A stretch of DNA of 35,200 nucleotides from the UHGV virus genome UHGV-0097760; one strand, written 5' to 3'. The notes beneath the pieces were generated by a model that ran no database searches, had not been told where the DNA came from, and saw nothing but the letters and a program-made list of their open reading frames with translations. Position numbers and translations under genes: made by a program. Shown piece by piece: positions 1 to 35,200 of this stretch (position 1 is its first letter; every line of letters begins with the position of its first letter). The DNA is from a virus.

Positions 1-1014
1 TTACTCTACTGTGGACACTGTGTGGACACTCTCGGCCTCAGTACCACCTCTTAGCGGATTAAGAGAAATGGCGTCCTGAAGGTACTCTGGCGCAAAATGA
101 GCGTAAACCATAGTTTGCTCAATCCGCGTGTGACCTAGTATCCGTTGTAGCGTGATAATACTTCCTCCATTAATCATGAAATGAGTGGCAAAGCTGTGCC
201 TTAGTGCATGTGTGGCTTGCCCCGTTGGCAAATCCGGTTTTATTGCTTTCATTGTTCGTCTGAAGCGAGGGTAATCAGCATCAGGGAATAAAAAACCTCG
301 TTTGTTATCCGCGATCATTTTGGCAACAGCCTCTGAGATCGGGACGGTGCGTGGTTTGTTTGTTTTCGTTTTAACAAACGTGACGCGGTTATGGATGATA
401 TTTTCTGCTTTCAAACGAGCTGCTTCTCCCCAACGTGCTCCTGTACTCAGGCAAAGAATCGCAATCTTTTTATTGTCGCCGTCAAGTGCTGCAAGCAGTA
501 AGGCAATTTCTTCCTGTGTGAGATAGCCTGTTTCTGGTTTTTCCTCCTTAAGCCTCTTTGTCCCTCTGATAGGGTGCTCACCAAAGAATAACTCCGCTTC
601 AATCAGGGCTGTAAACATGCCGCTAATACATGTTAAATCACGATTGATACTCGAAGGTTTAATACCCTGACTTCTTCGGGTGGCGCAGTACTGGCTGATA
701 AGGGATTTCGTGATTTGAAATGCGCATGGGTCATTCGTTATTTTTGTGAAGATTTCAATTTTTCCAAGATTAGATTTCCCATGCTCTTCGTGTTTACCCT
801 TTAAATCCCACCAGATCTGTGTCAGTTCCGACAGACGTCGTTTGTCTGTTGGTTTTGATAGCCATTCTTTATTGTGGTGGTTGTACAACGTGTATTTTTC
901 GAAAGCGACAGCTTCGCTTTTCTTATCAAACTTCCTACGGATGCGTTTTCCGTTACGTCCAGTAGGGCGGATGTCCACTTCATATCGACCATCATCGAGT
1001 TTTTTGATTGCCAT
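1..1014 (-). CDS. int: Phage integrase, tyrosine recombinase (P2 Int-like, 337 aa)
   Basis: 337-aa ORF; C-terminal HALRHSFATHF...ILGHTRIEQTMVYAHF tyrosine recombinase motifs; position at prophage end next to C repressor. Confidence 0.9.
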   Translation of the reverse strand: MAIKKLDDGRYEVDIRPTGRNGKRIRRKFDKKSEAVAFEKYTLYNHHNKEWLSKPTDKRRLSELTQIWWDLKGKHEEHGKSNLGKIEIFTKITNDPCAFQITKSLISQYCATRRSQGIKPSSINRDLTCISGMFTALIEAELFFGEHPIRGTKRLKEEKPETGYLTQEEIALLLAALDGDNKKIAILCLSTGARWGEAARLKAENIIHNRVTFVKTKTNKPRTVPISEAVAKMIADNKRGFLFPDADYPRFRRTMKAIKPDLPTGQATHALRHSFATHFMINGGSIITLQRILGHTRIEQTMVYAHFAPEYLQDAISLNPLRGGTEAESVHTVSTVE

Positions 1015-1129
1015 CAGAAAACCCTCCGAGTGGTACTTTTTTTTGCTACTACTAATCGCTTTTTTCGTGGTGGCTGAAATTTAGCCACCAATAGTAGGCA
1101 CTTGTGATGAATATATTCACGATAAATTG

Positions 1130-1429
1130 TTAACCAGTCTTTTGACCGGAGTGGGGCGACGTTGTTTCGTTTTGCCCAAAGTGTGCGAGAGCGGGCGCAA
1201 TTTGCCCGGCTTCTGGAGCTACCTGATCAGTCATGAACCACAAAGTATATTTAGTAAATCTAGGATGTTGTAAGACCTTCATTATGGCTTCAACTCCAGC
1301 GTTTTTTGACCGGCTCTCATAGCTCGAAAGTGAGCTGTAGGCTACACCAGTTAATTCACTGAATTCTTTACGGTTTAACCTTTCAGATTCACGGATTAGC
1401 TTCAACTTCTCCGAAACGTCTATTGACAT
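1130..1429 (-). CDS. C: Immunity repressor C (99 aa); ORF-track N-terminal extension trimmed to ATG at 1427-1429
   Basis: 99 aa from MSIDVSEKLKLIRE..., HTH-like segment, divergent from cox as in P2; length equals P2 C. Confidence 0.8.
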   Translation of the reverse strand: MSIDVSEKLKLIRESERLNRKEFSELTGVAYSSLSSYESRSKNAGVEAIMKVLQHPRFTKYTLWFMTDQVAPEAGQIAPALAHFGQNETTSPHSGQKTG

Positions 1430-1506
1430 AATTACTCCGATTGCGTAATTTCTTGCTGATGGTGTGAAATGTTGTGCTTCTGGAGTTATCCTTTTAGGCA
1501 ATAATT

Positions 1507-3590: not shown

Positions 3591-5859
3591 AGCCTCCGGG
3601 CATTTTGTCCCTCCGTCAGCATTTGCTGCAGGCACCGGTAAGGCGTTTACCGGTGCTTATGCATGGAACGCGCCACGCGAGGCTGTCGGGCGCGAAAGAC
3701 CCCTTACACGTGACGAGATGCGTCAGGTGCAAGGTGTTTTATCCACGATTAACCGCCTGCCTTACTTTTTGCGCTCGCTGTTTACGTCACGCTATGACTA
3801 CATCCGGCGCAATAAAAGCCCGGTGCACGGGTTTTATTTCCTCACATCCACTTTTCAGCGTCGTTTATGGCCGCGCATTGAGCGTGTGAATCAGCGCCAT
3901 GAAATGAACACCGACGCGTCGATGCTGTTTCTGGCTGAGCGTGACCACTATGCGCGCCTGCCGGGAATGAATGACAAGGAGCTGAAAAAGTTTGCCGCCC
4001 GTATCTCATCGCAGCTTTTCATGATGTATGAGGAACTCAGCGATGCCTGGGTGGATGCGCATGGCGAAAAAGAATCGCTGTTTACGGATGAGGCGCAGGC
4101 TCACCTCTATGGTCATGTTGCTGGCGCTGCACGTGCTTTCAATATTTCCCCTCTCTACTGGAAAAAATACCGTAAAGGACAGATGACCACGAGGCAGGCA
4201 TATTCTGCCATTGCCCGTCTGTTTAACGATGAGTGGTGGATTAGTCAGCTTAAAGGCCAGCGTATGCGCTGGCATGAGGCGTTACTGATTGCTGTCGGGG
4301 AGGTCAATAAAGACCGTTCTCCTTATGCCAGTAAACATGCCATTCGTGATGTGCGTGCACGCCGCCAGGCAAATCTGGAATTTCTAAAATCGTGTGATCT
4401 CGAAAACAGGGAAACAGGCGAGCGCATCGACCTTATCAGTAAGGTGATGGGCAGTATTTCTAATCCTGAAATTCGCCGGATGGAGCTGATGAACACCATT
4501 GCCGGTATTGAGCGTTACGCCGCCGCAGAAGGTGATGTGGGGATGTTTATCACGCTGACCGCGCCGTCAAAGTATCACCCGACACGTCAGGTTGGAAAAG
4601 GCGAAAGTAAAACCGTCCAGCTAAATCACGGCTGGAACGATGAGGCATTTAATCCAAAGGATGCGCAGCGTTATCTCTGCCGTATCTGGAGCCTGATGCG
4701 CACGGCATTCAAGGATAATGATTTACAGGTCTACGGTTTGCGAGTCGTCGAGCCACACCACGACGGAACGCCGCACTGGCATATGATGCTTTTTTGTAAT
4801 CCACGCCAGCGTAACCAGATTATCGAAATCATGCGTCGCTACGCGCTCAAAGAGGATGGCGACGAAAGAGGAGCTGCGCGAAACCGTTTTCAGGCAAAAC
4901 ATCTTAATCGGGGCGGTGCTGCGGGGTATATCGCGAAATACATCTCAAAAAATATCGACGGCTATGCACTGGATGGGCAGCTCGATAACGATACCGGCAG
5001 ACCGCTGAAAGATACTGCCGCGGCTGTTACCGCATGGGCGTCAACGTGGCGCATTCCGCAATTTAAAACGGTTGGCCTGCCGACAATGGGGGCTTACCGT
5101 GAACTACGCAAATTGCCTCGCGGCGTCAGCATTGCTGATGAGTTTGACGAGCGCGTCGAGGCTGCACGCGCCGCCGCAGACAGTGGTGATTTTGCGCTGT
5201 ATATCAGCGCGCAGGGTGGGGCAAATGTCCCGCGCGATTGTCAGACTGTCAGGGTCGCCCGTAGTCCGTCGGATGAAGTTAACGAGTACGAGGAAGAAGT
5301 CGAGAGAGTGGTCGGCATTTACGCGCCGCATCTCGGCGCGCGTCATATTCATATCACCAGAACGACGGACTGGCGCATTGTTCCGAAAGTGCCGGTCGTT
5401 GAGCCTTTGACTTTAAAAAGCGGCATCGCCGCGCCTCGGAGTCCTGTCAATAACTGTGGAAAGCTCACCGGCGGTAATACTTCGTTACCGGCTCCCACGC
5501 CTTCTGAACACGCCGCAGCCGTGCTTAATCTGGCTGATGACGGTGTTATCGAATGGAATGACCCGGATGTCGTGAGGGCGCTCAGGGGCGCATTAAAACA
5601 CGGGCTGAGAACGCCAAATCGTCAACAAAGAAACGGAAGCCCGTTAAAACCGCATGAAATTGCACCATCGGCCAGACTGAGCCGGTCTGAACGATTGCAA
5701 ATCACCCGTATCCGCGTTGACCTTGCTCAGAACGGTATCAGGCCGCAGCGATGGGAGCTTGAGGCGCTGGCGCGTGGCGCGACCGTAAATTATGACGGGA
5801 AAAAATTCACGTATCCGGTCGCTGATGAGTGGCCGGGATTCTGGCATCAATTTGAGTAA
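3580..5859 (+). CDS. A: Replication initiation endonuclease A (rolling-circle initiator); start set at ATG 3580, the ORF-track start at 3538 is a TTG extension
   Basis: 759-aa ORF in A position; HUH-like motif context HHDGTPHWHMMLF and catalytic-Tyr region YIAKYISKN. Confidence 0.85.
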   Translation: MAVKASGHFVPPSAFAAGTGKAFTGAYAWNAPREAVGRERPLTRDEMRQVQGVLSTINRLPYFLRSLFTSRYDYIRRNKSPVHGFYFLTSTFQRRLWPRIERVNQRHEMNTDASMLFLAERDHYARLPGMNDKELKKFAARISSQLFMMYEELSDAWVDAHGEKESLFTDEAQAHLYGHVAGAARAFNISPLYWKKYRKGQMTTRQAYSAIARLFNDEWWISQLKGQRMRWHEALLIAVGEVNKDRSPYASKHAIRDVRARRQANLEFLKSCDLENRETGERIDLISKVMGSISNPEIRRMELMNTIAGIERYAAAEGDVGMFITLTAPSKYHPTRQVGKGESKTVQLNHGWNDEAFNPKDAQRYLCRIWSLMRTAFKDNDLQVYGLRVVEPHHDGTPHWHMMLFCNPRQRNQIIEIMRRYALKEDGDERGAARNRFQAKHLNRGGAAGYIAKYISKNIDGYALDGQLDNDTGRPLKDTAAAVTAWASTWRIPQFKTVGLPTMGAYRELRKLPRGVSIADEFDERVEAARAAADSGDFALYISAQGGANVPRDCQTVRVARSPSDEVNEYEEEVERVVGIYAPHLGARHIHITRTTDWRIVPKVPVVEPLTLKSGIAAPRSPVNNCGKLTGGNTSLPAPTPSEHAAAVLNLADDGVIEWNDPDVVRALRGALKHGLRTPNRQQRNGSPLKPHEIAPSARLSRSERLQITRIRVDLAQNGIRPQRWELEALARGATVNYDGKKFTYPVADEWPGFWHQFE

Positions 5860-5888: not shown

Positions 5889-5958
5889 TTGACTGTAATT
5901 GATTGTTTTTTATATGGTTGCATGCATTAAATCTACGTCAATATCATTATGTTATAAT
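5889..5958 (+). promoter_or_regulatory. Candidate sigma70 promoter(s) for the cargo-locus-1 operon
   Basis: TTGACT (5889-5894) followed 16 nt later by TATATG; and extended -10 TGTTATAAT (5950-5958) about 30 nt upstream of the ATG at 5987. Confidence 0.35.
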
Positions 5959-5986: not shown

Positions 5987-6178
5987 ATGTTAAAGCCTGC
6001 AGATGTTGTTTGTTTGAAAAGCGGTGGATTTAAAATGACTGTATCTGACTCTACTGAGACTCATGCTAAATGTATTTGGCATGATAAAGAAGGAGTTTTG
6101 CACGAGGAGTCATTCTCCATTGATTTACTGGAAATAGCAGAGAGTAAAAGTGGTATGCTGTGTCGTCCACGTAAGTGA
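5987..6178 (+). CDS. Small DUF2158/YodC-like protein (P2 orf91 position); the alternative TTG start at 5903 would give 91 aa
   Basis: DVVCLKSGGFKMTV motif typical of YodC/DUF2158 small proteins; GGAG RBS at 5977-5980. Confidence 0.6.
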   Translation: MLKPADVVCLKSGGFKMTVSDSTETHAKCIWHDKEGVLHEESFSIDLLEIAESKSGMLCRPRK

Positions 6179-6205
6179 ATCACAATAAAATTCACGGGGG
6201 AAAGT

Positions 6206-6886
6206 ATGAAACAATACAGCGAATTAGAAAACAATGTTAAGAGATTCATTGTTGAGCATGAAAAAGGGATTTCTATTGATGATATTCATCATAAGTTCCG
6301 GATGAAGGATGGTCAGAATCGCAAGATGGCAGATTATCTTATTGATAATAAAAAGATAATTTTGGAGATGAAAAGTCTTTTTTCTGACAGGGTCAAGAAT
6401 GTCAATGATAAATTGAATGAGTTGGTTAAAACTGATAGTTGGCTTGCAAAAAACTGGCATGGTGCTATTCATTTAGAAGAGTTGATAAAAAGACACCCAG
6501 ACTCAAAGCGATTTAGAAATGATATAATGAACTTTGCTTATGAAAATATTAAAACAAAGGTAGTTAAAGAAGCTAATAAGCAAATAAATGCAACAAAGGA
6601 TGTTTTGGATTTAAATGACTCGATTGGCGGATTGATTTTGTTAAATGATAATGTCTTTTCACATGAGTTTAATTATTTGTCAGATGAAATATTATATTTG
6701 CTAGGCACAAAGAGATATTCGAGTGTTGAGTTTGTGGTTTATATTGCAAAATTGATTGATAAACAGGTTGATGTTTGTGTGCTACTTGACAGTCAATCTA
6801 AAAATAAAAATTATATTGAATGGTATATGAATAATGTTTTTTTGTTGAACTGGGCGTCTTTTAATAAATATGCAATAAAGATGTAG
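6206..6886 (+). CDS. Hypothetical protein, 226 aa, AT-rich cargo gene at the P2 tin position; function unknown
   Basis: Clean ORF with RBS GGGGGA upstream, 27 nt after the DUF2158 gene; no motif recognised by eye. Confidence 0.6.
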   Translation: MKQYSELENNVKRFIVEHEKGISIDDIHHKFRMKDGQNRKMADYLIDNKKIILEMKSLFSDRVKNVNDKLNELVKTDSWLAKNWHGAIHLEELIKRHPDSKRFRNDIMNFAYENIKTKVVKEANKQINATKDVLDLNDSIGGLILLNDNVFSHEFNYLSDEILYLLGTKRYSSVEFVVYIAKLIDKQVDVCVLLDSQSKNKNYIEWYMNNVFLLNWASFNKYAIKM

Positions 6887-6980
6887 TGGTGTGGATGGAT
6901 ATGAAATGAGTCAACCAAGATGCACCTTGGTCAGTAATCTCATGTGAGATACCACATATAACACCAAAAGTGTCAGGTTG

Positions 6981-7133
6981 ATGGCCATTGTTCACCGTTT
7001 ACAGCAGATTATGGTCAACGAAAATCTGACGCCCGATGAGCTAGTCGGGTGTGCCGAAATAGTCAGGGATAATTACGAACAGCTTAACTATATCGGTCAG
7101 TCCAGCCTTGCGCCGCCACCACGCAGACGATAG
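6981..7133 (+). CDS. Short ORF (50 aa from ATG), possibly a gene remnant, ending 4 nt before a hairpin
   Basis: Below the ORF-track cut-off; found by manual translation; GC content higher than the flanking cargo. Confidence 0.25.
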   Translation: MAIVHRLQQIMVNENLTPDELVGCAEIVRDNYEQLNYIGQSSLAPPPRRR

Positions 7134-7137
7134 AGAA

Positions 7138-7176
7138 CCCCGCCAGCAATGAAACATGTTTTCAGTGCTGGCGGGG
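7138..7176. terminator. Hairpin between convergent genes (11-bp perfect stem CCCCGCCAGCA / TGCTGGCGGGG)
   Basis: Perfect inverted repeat with 17-nt loop; weak T-tract, so bidirectional terminator function is inferred. Confidence 0.5.
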
Positions 7177-7206
7177 TTGAACAACGAACGAAGTGAGGCG
7201 TTAGCA

Positions 7207-8148
7207 TTAAGTTAATTTTAATGAATGGTACTCTCGTGAGTTGACCGAAGATTTGAGATAACCGCAATCATTAACCGACAGTATTGCCGCTAATAGGCGA
7301 CAAACGAGTTTCTGCATTTGCAGTAATATATCGTTACCATATTGATTGTTGTTAACACTGGAAAAACCAAGTGGTTGGCCAAAAAAAATAGCCTCATGAA
7401 AATTATCATTGCGGATGCCAGAAATGTTTTTTTTGCCTGATACCCATGTGGGGATTGATAACCCATAAATTCTGCACATCCACTTTAATCGCTTGGAATG
7501 ATTTGGCTGGGTTTTATCAGGAGCCTTGTCATGCTCAGCCCACGATAAAGCAAAGCAACCATCAAGTGCCATGTAAAGGTACTGGAATTTTTCAAAAGGA
7601 AGGTATTGTGGGTTTTGAGATAAGAATAGCGCATGCACCACTGCCGCAATTCTTTTGGGGGAGTGCGCATCCTTTTGTTTGTTAGTTATATAATTAAGAG
7701 CCAGTTCTATGACTTCTTTTTCAGAGCATCCAACGAGAATAAAATCGGTTAACTTAGTGGGCTTGATAGTGGTTGCATCAAGAAAACCAGCGTCAGTGGT
7801 TGTCAATCTTATACCCTTGAAAAAAGAGAGGCACCACACAACAAAGTTGAGAGTTTCTAACGAGGATGTGTTTTTTAATTTTAGTGTGTGCGTTTTGGGC
7901 ATGCCGAATACTCGGTAACTATAAGGCATTGTGCATGAGTCACCATTAAGGTTATATACCTTTCGATTCCCAGGGTATATCCAACCATTAACAACGTTTT
8001 TATCATTGTTAATACGTTCCACTTTCTCAATAAGACCGGGTAAAGTACGCAAAGAAAATTGTTCAGTCTCAATGTTAACTTCTACTGGATAGTATCCAAA
8101 CTCCGAAATAATCTCATTTGGTTGCTGTTCGTCAACTTCGCCTTGCAT
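7207..8148 (-). CDS. Hypothetical protein, 313 aa, AT-rich cargo gene adjacent to cos; possible HEPN-type (RNxxxH) nuclease motif
   Basis: Minus-strand ORF; motif GIRNDNFHEA near C-terminus matches the Rx4H HEPN signature; otherwise unrecognised. Confidence 0.6.
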   Translation of the reverse strand: MQGEVDEQQPNEIISEFGYYPVEVNIETEQFSLRTLPGLIEKVERINNDKNVVNGWIYPGNRKVYNLNGDSCTMPYSYRVFGMPKTHTLKLKNTSSLETLNFVVWCLSFFKGIRLTTTDAGFLDATTIKPTKLTDFILVGCSEKEVIELALNYITNKQKDAHSPKRIAAVVHALFLSQNPQYLPFEKFQYLYMALDGCFALSWAEHDKAPDKTQPNHSKRLKWMCRIYGLSIPTWVSGKKNISGIRNDNFHEAIFFGQPLGFSSVNNNQYGNDILLQMQKLVCRLLAAILSVNDCGYLKSSVNSREYHSLKLT

Positions 8149-8574: not shown

Positions 8575-9609
8575 TCAGCCGTTGTCAGTGTCCAGTGAGT
8601 AGTTTTTAAAGCGGATGACCTCCTGACCGAGCCAGCCGTTTATTTCCCGAATCCTGTCCTGTAACGGGATAAGCTCATTGCGGACAAAGACCTTTGCCAC
8701 TTTCTCAATATCACCCAGCGACCCGACGTTCTCCGGCTTGCCGCCCATCAACTGAAAGGGGATGCGGTGCGCGTCCAGCAGGTCAGCGGCGCTGGCTTTT
8801 TTGATATTAAAAAAATCGTCCTTCGTCGCCACTTCACTGAGCGGGATAATTTTAATGCCGTCGGCTTTCCCCTGTGGTGCATAGAGAAACAGATTTTTAA
8901 AGTTGTTGCGGCCTTTCGACTTCACCATGTTTTCGCGGAGCATTTCGATATCGTTGCGATCCTGCACGGCATCAGTGACGTACATGATGTATCCGGCATG
9001 TGCGCCGTTTTCGTAATACTTGCGGCGGAACAGCGTGGCCGACTCATTCAGCCAGGCAGAGTTAAGGGCGCTGAGATATTCCGGCAGGCCGTACAGCTCC
9101 TGATTAATATCCGGCTCCAGCAGGTGAAACACGGAGCCGGGCGTGAAAGGTGTCGGCTCGTTGAAGGACGGCACCCACCAGTAAACATCCTCCTCCACAC
9201 CACGGCGGGTATATTTTGCCGGTGAGGTTTCCAGTCTGATGACCTTACCGGTGGTGCTGTATCGCTTTTCCAGAAACGCATTACCGAACACCAGAAAATC
9301 CAGCACAAAGCGGCTGAAATCCTGCTGGGAAAGCCACGGATGCGGGATAAATGTCGAGGCCAGAATATTACGTTTGACGTAAATCGGTGAGCTGTGATGC
9401 ACGGCAGCACGCAGGCTTTTTGCCAGACCGGTAAAGCTGACCGGTGGCTCATACCATCTGCCGTTACTGATGCACTCGACGTAATCCAGAATGTCACGGC
9501 GGTCGAGTACCGGCACCGGCTCACCAAAGGTGAATGCCTCCATTTTCGGGGCGCTGGCGGTCATTTTTTTTGCCGCAGGTTGCGGTGTTTTCCCTTTTTT
9601 CTTGCTCAT
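8575..9609 (-). CDS. Q: Portal protein Q (344 aa)
   Basis: Length and synteny identical to P2 Q; adjacent to cos. Confidence 0.9.
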   Translation of the reverse strand: MSKKKGKTPQPAAKKMTASAPKMEAFTFGEPVPVLDRRDILDYVECISNGRWYEPPVSFTGLAKSLRAAVHHSSPIYVKRNILASTFIPHPWLSQQDFSRFVLDFLVFGNAFLEKRYSTTGKVIRLETSPAKYTRRGVEEDVYWWVPSFNEPTPFTPGSVFHLLEPDINQELYGLPEYLSALNSAWLNESATLFRRKYYENGAHAGYIMYVTDAVQDRNDIEMLRENMVKSKGRNNFKNLFLYAPQGKADGIKIIPLSEVATKDDFFNIKKASAADLLDAHRIPFQLMGGKPENVGSLGDIEKVAKVFVRNELIPLQDRIREINGWLGQEVIRFKNYSLDTDNG

Positions 9610-23184: not shown

Positions 23185-23778
23185 TTAGTTAATGCGTGTC
23201 AGCTCGTAATGACCTACTGTTTTACGGCTTGTAAAGTAGTTCCCATTTAACACGTCTTTATCATTAAGATTTAGCTTGAGAATAGCTGTGCCCATGTAAG
23301 GATCTTGTGGACCAAAACCTGCCTTATGCTTGGGGGTTGTTAAAAAAACGTAGTAAAGTTCTGGTCGCCCCGTTTCGGTATCCTTTTTAGGCTTAGCCAC
23401 CAATGTCTGAGAATCGGAGTCGTCAGCTTCGACATCCATTCCAATTTTAAGAAAATCCTGCTTTATAGTTGCTTGTGCGTGGGATGTGCCTTTTTTATCT
23501 TCCCATTCCCAATGAATAACCATATCCCAGGTTCCGTTCAAATCAGGGAAGAGTAGGTTATTTAGTTTAGGGAACCATTGCCATAACTTTCGCCACCCAA
23601 AGAAAAAAATTGATATCACAATAGTATTAAGAATAAACAAACCTCCAGATGCAACTGATAGGACTGTCATGAAAGTTGTGTTTTCATCATATATGCCCAA
23701 TAAAATCAGACCGCAGACAGTCGCATAGATAACGGAGATTCTTGAGATTATTTTCCATATTGGGAGAAGGTTTATCAT
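23185..23778 (-). CDS. Two-TM membrane protein with about 135-aa C-terminal soluble domain; candidate membrane-disrupting effector (Cap15 / S-2TMbeta-like architecture)
   Basis: Two hydrophobic helices (about residues 10-30 and 36-62) then a soluble C-terminal domain; ATGA start/stop overlap with upstream gene. Confidence 0.6.
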   Translation of the reverse strand: MINLLPIWKIISRISVIYATVCGLILLGIYDENTTFMTVLSVASGGLFILNTIVISIFFFGWRKLWQWFPKLNNLLFPDLNGTWDMVIHWEWEDKKGTSHAQATIKQDFLKIGMDVEADDSDSQTLVAKPKKDTETGRPELYYVFLTTPKHKAGFGPQDPYMGTAILKLNLNDKDVLNGNYFTSRKTVGHYELTRIN

Positions 23779-24212
23779 TGCAACTCCTCGTAATAAACTT
23801 CTTTACCAGCCTCAAATATAGAAAGACGACCTCTTTCGCCTACAATCCCTGTAAGTTTAATCTCGTCAATGCAAGAGCCATAAAGGGCAGCAACAAAACG
23901 TCCACCGACGAGTCTTGAACTGTCAAAACTGATGTTCTCTATGATTGGTGGTGAGAAATATTGTGCGGTATAAGTAACATTTCCTGCTTCATCTAAGATG
24001 TGAAAGCCATCATGGTATTCGCTATTTTTATTGGAAATTCTTGATAATAATTCTAATGTGGAATCATTCTGTATGGGGTCTATATTCCGAAGACTTGTGA
24101 TGGGAAGGCTATCAGGGTTATTACATATAATAACGCCTATGCCAGAAAAATAAGCACGACTGGATTTTTTCCAAATATCATATAGTAATTTATATAATTT
24201 CTCTTTTGTCAT
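23775..24212 (-). CDS. 145-aa protein with diadenylate-cyclase-like (DAC/DisA_N-like) motif layout; candidate nucleotide signal generator or sensor
   Basis: YHDGFHIL (DGA-like motif) and, 37 residues later, GGRFVAALYGS in the position of the DAC GTRHRAA motif (RHR degenerate to GRF); RBS GGAAG upstream; AT-rich. Confidence 0.5.
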   Translation of the reverse strand: MTKEKLYKLLYDIWKKSSRAYFSGIGVIICNNPDSLPITSLRNIDPIQNDSTLELLSRISNKNSEYHDGFHILDEAGNVTYTAQYFSPPIIENISFDSSRLVGGRFVAALYGSCIDEIKLTGIVGERGRLSIFEAGKEVYYEELQ

Positions 24213-24743: not shown

Positions 24744-26645
24744 ATGAAGCTAAGAATAAGTAAAATATCATTAAAAAACTTCAAAAGTTTTAAAAATATT
24801 ACTATCGTTCCCAATCCTGATTTTAATATAATCATTGGGGAAAATAGTGCTGGGAAGTCAACTGTTTTTGAAGCTATTCATTTATGGGAGAAATGTTATA
24901 AAACATATATCCTTGCTTCAAGGAAAGGGTTTTATAAAGTTAAGAAGTCAACAAACAGATATGTTAATTATCAAGAGCTGGATTTTTTGCGAATCACAAG
25001 TGATGAGGATCTTTTTCACGACCCAAGAGATCCTAATCTAGGAAAATGCTCTGAAATAACTCTGACATTAAAAAATGAAGAGGAGAATGATAAGAGCTGG
25101 GAGCTTGGATTCAAAGTTACATGCCCAACATCAATCGAAAATGCTTTTTTCCGCGTTCAACCAATAGATGAAAATCAGTTTACTAATTTTGCGGAAGAAT
25201 TTTGTAAAGGAGGGGCATTTTTGGATGAAGCTATCTTTATTTACCAGACGAGACCAGTAGCAGGAGTTCATCAATTTGAGCCGTACTATAATGAGGCTCA
25301 GATTAAGAGAAAAATACAAAAAGGTTATTCACACGAGGTTCTTAGAAACAAAATTATCTCTAAAAGAAAGTCAATATCAGATTTGGAATTAAGCATATCT
25401 GAAATACTTGAGAAAGATGTCAAGTTCAATATTCCTTCGGATGCAAGAAAAAATAAAGATGAATTCATTAAACTTGATGTTTCAATCAATAGTTCAAAAT
25501 ATTATGATCTTCACCTTCAAGGAAGTGGTTTTCTTCAAATTGTGGAAATACTATCTACAGTTGAATTTATTGATGCTCCTCTCAAGTTACTGCTTGTTGA
25601 CGAACCTGACTCACACATCCACACAAAGCTACAACATAATCTTCTCGCCCATTTAAAAAAAATAGATCACAATCAGTTTTTTATTATCAGTCATAACGAT
25701 CAATTTGTGACCAGCGCAGGAGAAGGTGAAGTATTCTTCCTAAACGAAGACGCTAAATTAAGTGGTCACCTAGAAGCAATCAACCCAAATAGTTTCGATA
25801 TTATAAAAAACTCATTGGGGGGGGTAATTTTATCTCTCGAGAGACTTAATAATGCAAAACTAATCGCATTTGTTGAAGGTGAGGACGATGAAAAATATCT
25901 AAAGAAACTTAACCAAAAGATCAAAGAAATTACTAACCCAATTGGTTGTTTGAAAAATGTAGTTTTCTTTCCGTTACGAGGAAAAGATAATATTCTCCAA
26001 AAGGTTGAGTATAATAAGAGAACTTTAAATTCGATTCTAAATGGCAAATCGTGGTATGTTATTTTTGATCGGGATTTTTCTACAGACACTGTTGATCATT
26101 ATCTTAAGGAAAATATTACTAAGAAACGGTTCACTCCATATAGTCATGTGGGGTATTGTATTGAGTCAGTGTTATTTTCGGATCTGAGTATTTTTAAAAA
26201 GTATTTGTATTCCTTGGCTCCATTTATTGCTGAAGACGAATTTTCAACACACATTGATACCTTAATTGATGAATTAAAGGATTCTGTCAATAATTTAACC
26301 TCCTCACTAAACAAAGAAATAGAGGCTAGATTCAATAGTCAAAAGAAAAACCGACCAGAATTTGCTAATCTTAATTTTGTGGATGTCGTTAGATCATGGT
26401 GCGAAGATGGAGTATTCAAACCTGAGCGAGTAATGTCAAAACCTCTTATCCAAAAGTTTGTTACAGATCTGGAAAATAAAATAGGTGTTTCTCTCTTCCT
26501 GCGAGAATCAAATGTAGATGAAGAAGTAGCATCAAAGTTATTATTTAAATACTTTGACTTCATTCAGACAATTGATGATTTGTATCCATCATTTCGAGAC
26601 TTGATGAAACAGCTAGATGTGCTGCCAAGAAATGAAGTTGAATAA
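24744..26645 (+). CDS. OLD-family nuclease: N-terminal ABC-type ATPase plus C-terminal Toprim domain (P2 Old / PARIS AriA-AriB-fusion-like), 633 aa
   Basis: Walker A GENSAGKST, Walker B LLLVDEPDSHIH, H-loop FIISHND; Toprim-like AFVEGEDDEKYL and DxD (VIFDRDFS); RBS GGGAG. Confidence 0.75.
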   Translation: MKLRISKISLKNFKSFKNITIVPNPDFNIIIGENSAGKSTVFEAIHLWEKCYKTYILASRKGFYKVKKSTNRYVNYQELDFLRITSDEDLFHDPRDPNLGKCSEITLTLKNEEENDKSWELGFKVTCPTSIENAFFRVQPIDENQFTNFAEEFCKGGAFLDEAIFIYQTRPVAGVHQFEPYYNEAQIKRKIQKGYSHEVLRNKIISKRKSISDLELSISEILEKDVKFNIPSDARKNKDEFIKLDVSINSSKYYDLHLQGSGFLQIVEILSTVEFIDAPLKLLLVDEPDSHIHTKLQHNLLAHLKKIDHNQFFIISHNDQFVTSAGEGEVFFLNEDAKLSGHLEAINPNSFDIIKNSLGGVILSLERLNNAKLIAFVEGEDDEKYLKKLNQKIKEITNPIGCLKNVVFFPLRGKDNILQKVEYNKRTLNSILNGKSWYVIFDRDFSTDTVDHYLKENITKKRFTPYSHVGYCIESVLFSDLSIFKKYLYSLAPFIAEDEFSTHIDTLIDELKDSVNNLTSSLNKEIEARFNSQKKNRPEFANLNFVDVVRSWCEDGVFKPERVMSKPLIQKFVTDLENKIGVSLFLRESNVDEEVASKLLFKYFDFIQTIDDLYPSFRDLMKQLDVLPRNEVE

Positions 26646-33838: not shown

Positions 33839-35200
33839 TCACTTACCGTGGGGGTTACGCGTGGTTTCACCGGAGAAATTACGCATCAGCAGCGCGTAAT
33901 TCAGTTCGAGATCCTGCGGCACCGGGAGCCACACAGTATAACCATCGCCTGGTGCGACCGGCATTGCTTCACCTTTGGCGTTTTCCATATGCTCAAGGGT
34001 AAAGTTAATGTTGCCTTGCGGCGTCATTAGCTCAAGGCTGTCGCCAACGGAGAATTTATTTTTCACCGCTACCGCCGCGAGCTCCCCCTTGCGCTCACCG
34101 GTAAACTCACCAACAAACTGCTGGCGGTCAGAAACCGAATAACCGTATTCGTAGTTCTGATAATCGTCGTGGGTATGACGACGCAGGAAACCTTCGGTAT
34201 AGCCACGATGCGCCAGACCTTCCAGCGTTTCCAGCAGGCTGGTATCGAACGGTTTGCCCGCAGCGGCGTCATCGATAGCTTTACGGTAAACCTGCGCGGT
34301 GCGTGCGCAATAGTAGAAAGATTTGGTACGGCCTTCGATTTTCAGCGAATGCACGCCCATTTTGGTCAGGCGTTCAACATGGGCGATGGCGCGCAGATCT
34401 TTCGAGTTCATGATGTAAGTGCCGTGCTCATCTTCAAACGCGGTCATATACTCGCCCGGACGCTGGGCTTCTTCGATCATAAACACTTTGTCGGTTGGCG
34501 CGCCGATACCCAGCGTCGGCTCAACATTTTGCACCGGAATTGGCTCGTACTTGTGTACGATGTTGCCAACGTCATCTTCTTTCCCTTCCTGGACGTTGTA
34601 CTCCCAGCGGCAGGCGTTGGTGCAGGTACCCTGGTTCGGGTCGCGCTTGTTGATATAGCCAGAGAGCAGGCAGCGACCGGAGTAGGCCATGCACAGCGCA
34701 CCGTGAACGAAGATCTCGATCTCCATATCCGGCACCTGATTGCGGATCTCTTCAATCTCTTCCAGCGACAGCTCGCGAGAGAGGATCACGCGGGTCAGGC
34801 CCATTTGCTGCCAGAATTTCACCGTCGCCCAGTTCACGGCGTTAGCCTGTACCGAGAGATGGATCGGCATTTCAGGGAAGTGCTCACGCACCAGCATAAT
34901 CAGCCCTGGATCGGACATAATCAGCGCATCCGGCCCCATTTCCACCACCGGTTTCAGGTCACGGATAAAGGTTTTCAGCTTGGCGTTGTGCGGTGCAATG
35001 TTGACCACGACATAAAACTTTTTCCCCAGCGCGTGGGCTTCATTGATGCCGAGCTGAAGATTTTCGTGGTTGAATTCGTTGTTGCGCACACGCAGGGAGT
35101 AACGCGGCTGGCCCGCATAAACAGCATCTGCGCCATAAGCGAAAGCGTAACGCATATTTTTCAGCGTTCCCGCCGGGGAAAGGAGTTCCGGTTTAAACAT
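33839..35200 (-). CDS. yegQ: Host U32-family peptidase-like protein YegQ (453 aa); start codon is the last 3 nt of the window
   Basis: 453-aa ORF with U32 family features; GC content and location outside attR indicate host DNA; neighbour of cyaR as in E. coli K-12. Confidence 0.8.
   Translation of the reverse strand: MFKPELLSPAGTLKNMRYAFAYGADAVYAGQPRYSLRVRNNEFNHENLQLGINEAHALGKKFYVVVNIAPHNAKLKTFIRDLKPVVEMGPDALIMSDPGLIMLVREHFPEMPIHLSVQANAVNWATVKFWQQMGLTRVILSRELSLEEIEEIRNQVPDMEIEIFVHGALCMAYSGRCLLSGYINKRDPNQGTCTNACRWEYNVQEGKEDDVGNIVHKYEPIPVQNVEPTLGIGAPTDKVFMIEEAQRPGEYMTAFEDEHGTYIMNSKDLRAIAHVERLTKMGVHSLKIEGRTKSFYYCARTAQVYRKAIDDAAAGKPFDTSLLETLEGLAHRGYTEGFLRRHTHDDYQNYEYGYSVSDRQQFVGEFTGERKGELAAVAVKNKFSVGDSLELMTPQGNINFTLEHMENAKGEAMPVAPGDGYTVWLPVPQDLELNYALLMRNFSGETTRNPHGK

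Follow-up and report, generated by a model that had tools for sequence, protein, structure and literature searches.

The interval between the replication endonuclease gene gpA and the portal gene gpQ of P2-like phages is a documented defence hotspot (PMC9122126; PMC13586616). A recognised complete defence system is present in 49% of P2-like elements and defence-associated genes in 81%, and rapid swapping of the hotspot cargo has been documented (PMC13586616). Partition genes are found in about one quarter of P2 hotspots, and toxins in some (PMC9122126). P2-like prophages form a major store of antiviral genes in E. coli, one whose contents are swapped quickly, and about half of the hotspot cargo is unannotated; residence in the hotspot alone, however, is no proof of defence.

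In P2 itself, this variable region is the site of tin and old. Tin excludes T-even phages via the gp32 single-strand DNA-binding protein and, according to the literature, is not a nuclease; Old is an ABC-ATPase and Toprim protein. P2 tin and gpA are on opposite strands; tin is co-transcribed with old and has its own mapped promoter near cos. The gene considered here, ORF226, belongs to a stretch of viral DNA of 35,200 nucleotides (UHGV-0097760; the window), which is a P2-like (Peduovirus) prophage. ORF226 occupies the same slot between gpA and gpQ as tin and old. Unlike the tin-old arrangement, however, it lies on the gpA strand and is preceded by a small gene of the DUF2158 family, and no old homologue was found inside the hotspot of this prophage. 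The preliminary description had placed the gene at the P2 tin position, which holds broadly, for the gpA-gpQ region, but not for the position of tin itself, on the opposite strand and together with old. ORF226 would resemble Old in being an accessory gene of the nuclease type in a P2-like prophage, although Old shows no homology to the ORF226 family (profile score 0.6 bits).

ORF226 has been catalogued since 2006, and again in 2022, without annotation. At the DNA level the locus matches AM157369 with 99.5% identity. This record, from E. coli ECOR67, is entitled "Bacteriophage P2-EC67 proviral ORF226 and ORF313"; it names ORF73, ORF226 and ORF313, all as hypothetical, and encodes an ORF226 protein that is 99% identical to ours. 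We take this record to stem from Odegrip et al. (2006). ORF226 also corresponds over its full length to phrog_20483 (4e-140), whose function is not known, and carries the RefSeq label "hypothetical protein". Rousset et al. (2022) list a 226-aa and a 63-aa protein together in their Table S5B as system #63, "DUF2158", with 67 occurrences in their E. coli dataset. It is the same system as the one described here, with a 226-aa protein 99% identical to ORF226 and an identical 63-aa DUF2158 sequence, and its entry leaves the 226-aa protein without function, domain or comment. The ORF226 sequence is absent from Table S2, which holds the systems cloned and tested in that study (Rousset et al., 2022). 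We also considered whether ORF226 could belong to Rst_3HP ("3 hypothetical proteins") of the same authors; this was rejected on the lack of both a PADLOC match and an entry in their Table S2. A search of the literature on P2-EC67, DUF2158 and REase_DpnII-MboI returned nothing functional. The assignment of ORF226 to a nuclease fold and the recognition of its wider family are new here.

ORF226: gene, family and predicted fold

The gpA gene ends at position 5859 (+ strand), and gpQ lies at 8575-9609 (- strand), with the terminase gene next. Between them is a 2.7-kb AT-rich block with a GC content of 30-44%, as compared to 50-58% in the flanks. ORF226 extends from the ATG at 6206 to the TAG at 6884-6886 on the + strand (6206-6886) and has 29.8% GC, against 50-58% in gpA and the portal and terminase genes; coordinates, strand, length and AT-richness are all as first described. 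A Shine-Dalgarno-like GGGGGA, recognised by reading the sequence, is located at 6196-6201 (+ strand), 5-10 nt before the ATG. At this base composition, the chance of finding 226 open codons is only about 6.5e-10, and 1000 shuffles of the 1.1-kb cassette yielded no ORF longer than 156 aa. Full-length homologues of 63-100% identity are found in E. coli, Salmonella, Citrobacter and Pantoea. The dN/dS ratio is about 0.08 in comparison with a 76%-identical Citrobacter copy and about 0.15 with the copy in phage 720R8; for the Pantoea copy dS is saturated, with a dN of 0.26. All copies keep a GC content of about 30% whichever their host, as expected for horizontally moving cargo. Among 5426 complete E. 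coli genomes, 27 carry ORF226, on the chromosome every time, and a tblastn search of the PLSDB plasmids with ORF226 gave no match. We conclude that ORF226 is a genuine conserved gene under strong purifying selection.

To collect relatives, 1.84 billion representatives were searched exhaustively with an HMMER profile; 346 proteins reached E<=1e-3, and 74 of them reached E<=1e-10. At 50% identity these correspond to about 350 clusters of a family not classified before, and with its profile several hundred more genes labelled "hypothetical", on prophages, on plasmids and in defence islands, can be annotated. Word-indexed searching had recovered close relatives only, and a second word-indexed search, with the profile, added few new proteins. 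The 142 relatives that were aligned are about 20-40% identical to ORF226. The family divides into three length classes: one of about 220-265 aa, resembling ORF226, one of about 330-350 aa, whose C-terminus is extended by conserved helices, and a small one of 440-740 aa. An N-terminal Mrr_cat nuclease domain is present in five of the 142 and a C-terminal SEC-C motif in four. ORF226 itself matched Pfam, NCBIfam and PADLOC at noise level only (Tape_meas_lam_C, E 0.067; RQC_minor_2, 15.6 bits against a cut-off of 300). No match at E<=1 was found in PADLOC-DB v2, which includes the Rousset Rst, PD-T4/T7/Lambda and PDC systems, for ORF226, DUF2158 or the two downstream ORFs, ORF51 and ORF313, so that the comparison with defence databases suggested in the preliminary description gave no hit. 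Homology to a housekeeping or morphogenetic phage protein, which was to count against a defence role, was likewise not seen.

The preliminary description recognised no motif in the protein, an impression that the family alignment corrects. A-D-[YF]-x(7-9)-[IV]-x-E-x-K is the textbook signature of PD-(D/E)xK nucleases, and ORF226 carries the sequence A42-D43-Y...I52-L-E54-M-K56 (D...ExK; 6332-6373, + strand), which conservation and the structural model both mark as the predicted catalytic core. D43 is kept in 140 of the 142 relatives, and E54 and K56 are each kept in 141, fusion proteins included. D25 (codon at 6278-6280, + strand), at the N-terminus of a helix formed by residues 24-31, is a candidate additional metal ligand; it is invariant in one family alignment and at least 90% conserved in a second. 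Q126 (6581-6583, + strand), on the long helix before the fourth core strand, is present in all 142 sequences, as part of an A123-x-x-Q126-I-x-x-T130-K motif inside model helix 113-133. N147 (6644-6646, + strand), at the end of core strand 140-148, is found in 137/142 sequences and is invariant in the same alignment as D25. A42, A123, T130 and G141 are also invariant or nearly so.

With the 142-sequence alignment, AlphaFold2 gave a model with a pLDDT of 95.3 and a pTM of 0.89; with 14 close sequences the model was fair (pLDDT 79). From N- to C-terminus the model runs alpha-alpha-beta-beta-beta-(helical insert 63-133)-beta-alpha-beta-beta-alpha, and it contains, predicted with high confidence, the alpha-beta-beta-beta-alpha-beta core of the PD-(D/E)xK fold, with the D...(D/E)-x-K residues on strands 2 and 3. 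D43 lies right before the second strand (44-46) and E54 and K56 in the third (51-58). A helical insert of about 70 residues follows ExK, and Q126 is on its last helix, before strand 140-148. Conserved polar residues on a helix and a strand after ExK, here Q126 and N147, are a further likeness to the superfamily. The structural neighbours of the model include the superfamily members BsmI, N.BspD6I, FokI, PspGI, NgoMIV and NucS, together with CBASS NucC and the CdiA-CT toxins of Bp1026b, EC869, Yptb and E479, the latter two groups at only 8-15% identity to ORF226; in a Foldseek search of the PDB no match to the model was significant (best E 0.15). Sequence searches of the PDB, with ORF226 or with the family profile, gave chance-level matches only (GP-PDE, shikimate kinase). 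Weak, sub-threshold matches to PF18742 (REase_DpnII-MboI), the nearest Pfam family, were obtained for 20 of the 142 relatives, the best at 1.3e-4. For relative P0097, the only one whose score was read, the match reached 19.0 bits (gathering threshold 27) and spanned exactly the D...ExK segment, at PF18742 profile positions 58-91; ORF226 itself did not match PF18742 at E<=1. This indicates, at the level of sequence profiles, a distant relationship at most between PF18742 and the ORF226 family. Conservation and model point with considerable force to ORF226 being a PD-(D/E)xK-fold nuclease, very probably with an intact active site. Nuclease cargo in a prophage defence hotspot is of a well-known kind; this family of it had escaped classification and has no model of its own in Pfam, NCBIfam or PADLOC.

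Genomic contexts of relatives and a proposed mode of action

The genes around members of the family were inspected in eight contexts besides this hotspot. The Pantoea ananatis copy is a lone gene on the contig of an IncFII-type conjugative plasmid. A relative of 41% identity, P0056, is found in an integrative island between genes for a CI-like repressor and a DUF4238 defence protein (PADLOC DUF4238-Pers, 5e-18), with a BamHI restriction-modification system and a DUF3800 gene nearby. P0206 has Tmn (2e-85) in its vicinity, along with one PDC-S10-like gene and one KfrA plasmid gene; P0173 directly adjoins an HNH nuclease gene beside umuDC-like genes; P0210 follows an integrase gene and precedes a resolvase gene; and P0080 is flanked by a DUF559/Vsr-like gene and by a type I restriction-modification system with PDC-S02. 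Thus, members of the ORF226 family occur singly, on mobile elements and in defence islands, and often beside known defence genes. Neither a methyltransferase nor an immunity gene is consistently found beside the relatives in these eight contexts, and the HsdM gene in one of them (L021) is part of a complete type I system.

These surroundings set the family apart from several known systems. Type II restriction-modification involves a neighbouring methyltransferase, which is absent here, the hotspot neighbours of ORF226 being DUF2158, a 51-aa ORF and ORF313. NucC needs cyclic tri-AMP from a partner cyclase for its activation, and CdiA-CT domains are delivered toxins that are neutralised by CdiI; unlike both, the ORF226 family has no conserved cyclase or immunity partner. 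A type IV restriction enzyme combines a solitary nuclease with a domain that reads modified bases; ORF226 is a predicted solitary nuclease, Pfam detected in it no known reader domain (SRA, EVE, YTH, DUF262 and similar), and five relatives carry the fused Mrr_cat domain mentioned above. The earlier proposal of a single-protein defence or exclusion factor is plausible in the light of the hotspot, the nuclease fold and motif and the relatives beside PADLOC defence genes; its Tin-like component is not.

For ORF226 we infer nuclease activity, a nucleic acid substrate, expression in the lysogen and an anti-phage role. Expressed from the prophage, the protein would use D25, D43 and E54 as metal ligands and K56 as the general base or transition-state residue to cut the nucleic acid, most probably DNA, of a superinfecting phage or another invading element, and competitors would thereby be excluded. 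Because CdiA-CT Bp1026b and E479, which are among the top structural neighbours, are tRNases, the substrate could also be RNA. As no cognate methyltransferase was found in any context, host nucleic acid must be spared in another way. Possibly, the target is absent from the host, as would be the case for modified bases or for replication or recombination intermediates, and ORF226 would then act in a type IV-like or structure-specific mode; alternatively, the protein may be held inactive until infection. This self/non-self step is a guess, since no sensor, modification-reader or immunity component was identified. A role of ORF226 in conflict or defence is somewhat favoured by us over other kinds of function. 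The complete statement, that it is a solitary, catalytically competent PD-(D/E)xK nuclease that excludes invaders, seems to us evenly balanced between being right and wrong.

The DUF2158-ORF226 cassette and alternative readings

In E. coli, Salmonella and Citrobacter, ORF226 is the second gene of a two-gene cassette. The first gene (5987-6178, + strand) encodes a 63-aa protein of the DUF2158 or YodC family (PMC5437024), which matches PF09926 above the gathering score (1.2e-7) and also corresponds to phrog_3261. A mechanical ORF call would place its start at 5903; the 63-aa RefSeq form starts at 5987, and in an alignment of cassettes a GGAGA ribosome-binding site and the ATG are conserved. The gene upstream of ORF226 had been likened to orf91 of P2, an identification that does not survive: the two do not align, and P2 orf91 is a DUF3850 protein, of a Pfam family other than DUF2158. 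The two cassette genes are separated by 27 nt, and are adjacent in 27/27 E. coli genomes, in both phage records and in the P2-like prophage of Citrobacter whose ORF226 is 76% identical to ours. An extended -10 promoter-like element, TGTTATAAT (TGnTATAAT), can be read upstream of DUF2158 at 5950-5958 (+ strand). This upstream region is conserved in the cassettes of both E. coli and Citrobacter, and alignment shows that phage 720R8 keeps the TGnTATAAT element, as does the Citrobacter cassette (TGATATAAT) despite its divergence; a simple scan gave a weaker promoter match, TTGACT-18-TATGGT, at 5889-5918. Conservation of the element suggests that the cassette may travel with an extended -10 promoter of its own.

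The constant pairing raises the possibility that ORF226 is a toxic PD-(D/E)xK nuclease, a DNase or tRNase, which is checked by DUF2158 and freed by infection to kill or arrest the cell, DUF2158 being a co-transcribed antitoxin, inhibitor or sensor. Such a reading would account for the strict linkage and the 27-nt gap in the P2-like prophages of the Enterobacteriaceae, and is in line with the listing of both genes as one system by Rousset et al. (2022). Moreover, CdiA-CT and NucC, which are effectors of toxin or abortive-infection systems, are among the best structural neighbours of ORF226, and two of the 142 relatives match Tox-REase-9. The pairing, however, does not extend to the family. The Pantoea copy, 63% identical to ORF226, has neither a DUF2158 gene nor any other small ORF upstream, and DUF2158 was not found beside any distant homologue examined. 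DUF2158 is thus not an obligatory partner of the family, and for the same reason an obligatory antitoxin is unlikely. The conserved adjacent partner by which a type II toxin-antitoxin or abortive-infection pair is recognised is lacking family-wide, DUF2158 being limited to the P2-like lineage. All eight places sampled in E. coli and Salmonella show one identical arrangement, and therefore represent one successful hotspot allele; the linkage in E. coli may simply reflect the recent spread of that allele (99% identity). To our knowledge, no antitoxin role is known for DUF2158. We consider a toxin held in check by DUF2158 unlikely.

A related proposal retains restriction of invading phages or plasmids by the nuclease and assigns to the YodC-like protein, in P2-like prophages, the part of a regulator or infection sensor, so that DUF2158-ORF226 would be a new anti-phage system, a minimal nuclease without a methyltransferase. 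We put this forward tentatively, and with more doubt than expectation. If it were true, it would provide a first function for the DUF2158/YodC family, and ORF226 would found a widespread family absent from Pfam, NCBIfam and PADLOC; an active cassette would add a methyltransferase-free minimal nuclease to the single- and two-gene defences. A cassette inactive against phages would be a useful counter-example to inference of function from residence in a hotspot.

The nuclease could instead serve its own spread or the phage. As a homing-type endonuclease acting on P2 relatives that lack the cassette, it would cleave so as to promote its own spread or the swapping of the hotspot; it could also have an anti-plasmid role. 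Because ORF226 shares the direction of the early replication operon, it is possible that it is a lytic-cycle gene, degrading for example host or competitor DNA, rather than a gene of lysogenic conversion. Its appearance as a short, AT-rich insertion of one gene amid conserved phage genes, in the early-operon direction and only 127 nt past gpA with no predicted terminator between, is what such a reading would lead one to expect, as are the lone family genes on diverse mobile elements and the documented fast swapping of P2 hotspot cargo (PMC13586616). Yet no evidence of a target site was found, selection on the gene is strongly purifying across hosts, conservation of the promoter-like element suggests that expression does not depend on the early operon, and the relatives in chromosomal defence islands beside restriction-modification systems suit defence better than homing. 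On balance, we regard a selfish or phage-beneficial nuclease as quite unlikely, and retain exclusion of invaders as the preferred reading.

The protein could in principle use the PD-(D/E)xK fold for a purpose other than cleavage, as a DNA-binding regulator or a structural partner. Inactivated members of the superfamily normally lose the acidic and lysine residues, however, whereas here 140-141 of 142 very divergent sequences retain D43, E54 and K56, with Q126 and N147 conserved alongside; a non-catalytic function is accordingly improbable. A divergent Tin-like protein that poisons the single-strand DNA-binding protein of T-even phages, the suggestion of the preliminary description, can hardly be right, as ORF226 shares with Tin only the gpA-gpQ hotspot and a similar size (226 and 253 aa) and differs from it in strand, operon, nuclease fold and motif, with a best BLASTP match to P2 Tin (NP_046797) of E 1.2 over 25 residues and a score for Tin of -1.2 bits with the profile of 142 family members; the tempting label "Tin-like" should be dropped.

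Downstream features of the gpA-gpQ block

A 51-aa ORF, ORF51 (6978-7133, + strand; phrog_11386), follows ORF226 and is not specific to the cassette: the segment 6946-7204 matches a P2 genome record (OU784549/NC_070904), Wphi (gp92) and many other P2-like phages without ORF226. An inverted repeat with a 13-bp G+C-rich stem and an inner stem is located at 7136-7178, between the + strand unit and the convergent ORF313. Its predicted folding energy is -31.8 kcal/mol (z = -6.9), and none of 200 shuffles was as stable, which makes the element a probable bidirectional terminator; it is missing from the terminator scan because no T-run follows it. ORF313 (7207-8148, - strand) encodes a 313-aa protein with a HEPN motif. 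We considered whether ORF226 and ORF313 form one system and rejected the idea, as each occurs without the other: phage 613R3 and Yersinia phages have ORF313 but no ORF226, the 51-aa ORF being likewise a separate module, and ORF226 is found without ORF313 in Citrobacter and Pantoea. In addition to the HEPN-motif ORF313, further genes of defence type in the same prophage code for a Cap15-like effector and an OLD/PARIS-like ATPase-DUF4435 protein.

A second gene and a conserved stretch in the gpA-gpQ hotspot

The gpA-gpQ variable region carries, in addition to ORF226 (the 226-aa predicted PD-(D/E)xK-fold nuclease), a second cargo gene on the opposite strand. This gene, which corresponds to ORF313 of P2-EC67 and to the PHROGs family phrog_5937, occupies window positions 7207-8148 (minus strand) and is convergent with ORF226. 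A search with ORF313 gave 488 hits, which make up a large family of gammaproteobacterial proteins with an invariant R245-N-D-x-x-H250-E motif. This motif is the Rx4H signature of HEPN RNases, and one homologue bears the UniRef name 'Apea-like HEPN domain-containing protein'. No Pfam or PADLOC model matched ORF313. Because ORF313 is found without linkage to ORF226 in other P2/186-like phages, we consider it a candidate for a second, separate defence gene of the hotspot.

Downstream of ORF226 is a stretch (6946-7204, plus strand) that is 86-90% identical in numerous P2-like phages whose hotspot cargo differs widely; among them are a P2 genome record (OU784549/NC_070904), Wphi (gp92) and P22H4. 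The stretch includes a 51-aa ORF (6978-7133, plus strand), which RefSeq, evidently in error, names 'meiotically up-regulated 80 protein', and at its end an inverted repeat (7136-7178) that forms a palindromic hairpin of very high predicted stability (-31.8 kcal/mol, z = -6.9). It has the look of a module, conserved among these phages, that bounds the hotspot or terminates transcription there, and it could serve as a recombination anchor in the swapping of cargo.

Candidate defence genes in the second hotspot

Two further loci lie in the second P2 hotspot, which is found within the tail gene region at the Z/fun position. The first (23185-24212, minus strand) consists of a gene for a 197-aa Cap15-like effector and a 145-aa ORF that lies 5' of it, the two overlapping by 4 nt. 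The effector has two transmembrane segments and a cyclic-dinucleotide receptor domain (PF18153, 8e-20), and was matched by PADLOC as a CBASS 2TM effector (3e-31). No CD-NTase was seen for this locus; the sole match of the 145-aa ORF was to the DAC/DisA_N diadenylate-cyclase domain, and was sub-threshold (3.6e-5; its 23.8 bits fall short of the gathering score, 27). The two genes could form a minimal signalling system made up of an effector and a cyclase of unusual type.

The second locus (24744-26645, plus strand) codes for a 633-aa protein with an ABC/SMC-type ATPase at its N-terminus (AAA_15, AAA_21 and AAA_23) and a DUF4435 domain at its C-terminus. It matched the PADLOC models for NsnB, fused PARIS AriAB, PtuA and GajA, and is a candidate OLD/PARIS-like single-protein defence gene.

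Long relatives of ORF226 and the ends of the window

Among the distant relatives of ORF226 found by profile search, we considered eight longer proteins (P0072, P0075, P0076, P0084, P0096, P0114, P0140 and P0158), none encoded in the window. In those of 520-740 aa, the ORF226-like domain is preceded by an N-terminal part of about 340 residues, which in P0114 (520 aa) comprises only about 120. This part starts with an Mrr_cat restriction-nuclease domain in P0075 and P0096, two of the five long relatives scanned, and a SEC-C zinc motif forms the C-terminal end of P0096 and P0114. The relatives of 330-350 aa are extended at the C-terminus by a conserved helical region with the motif ...PYLR...HFLEE.N.RG.D..., for which Pfam returned no match.

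At the left end of the window (within 1-1501, minus strand), a 337-aa ORF that reaches the edge is, judged by its position, probably the integrase, and an HTH_3 repressor-like ORF occupies 1130-1501 (minus strand). At the right end, a peptidase U32 family gene (33839-35200, minus strand) probably represents host chromosome flanking the prophage.
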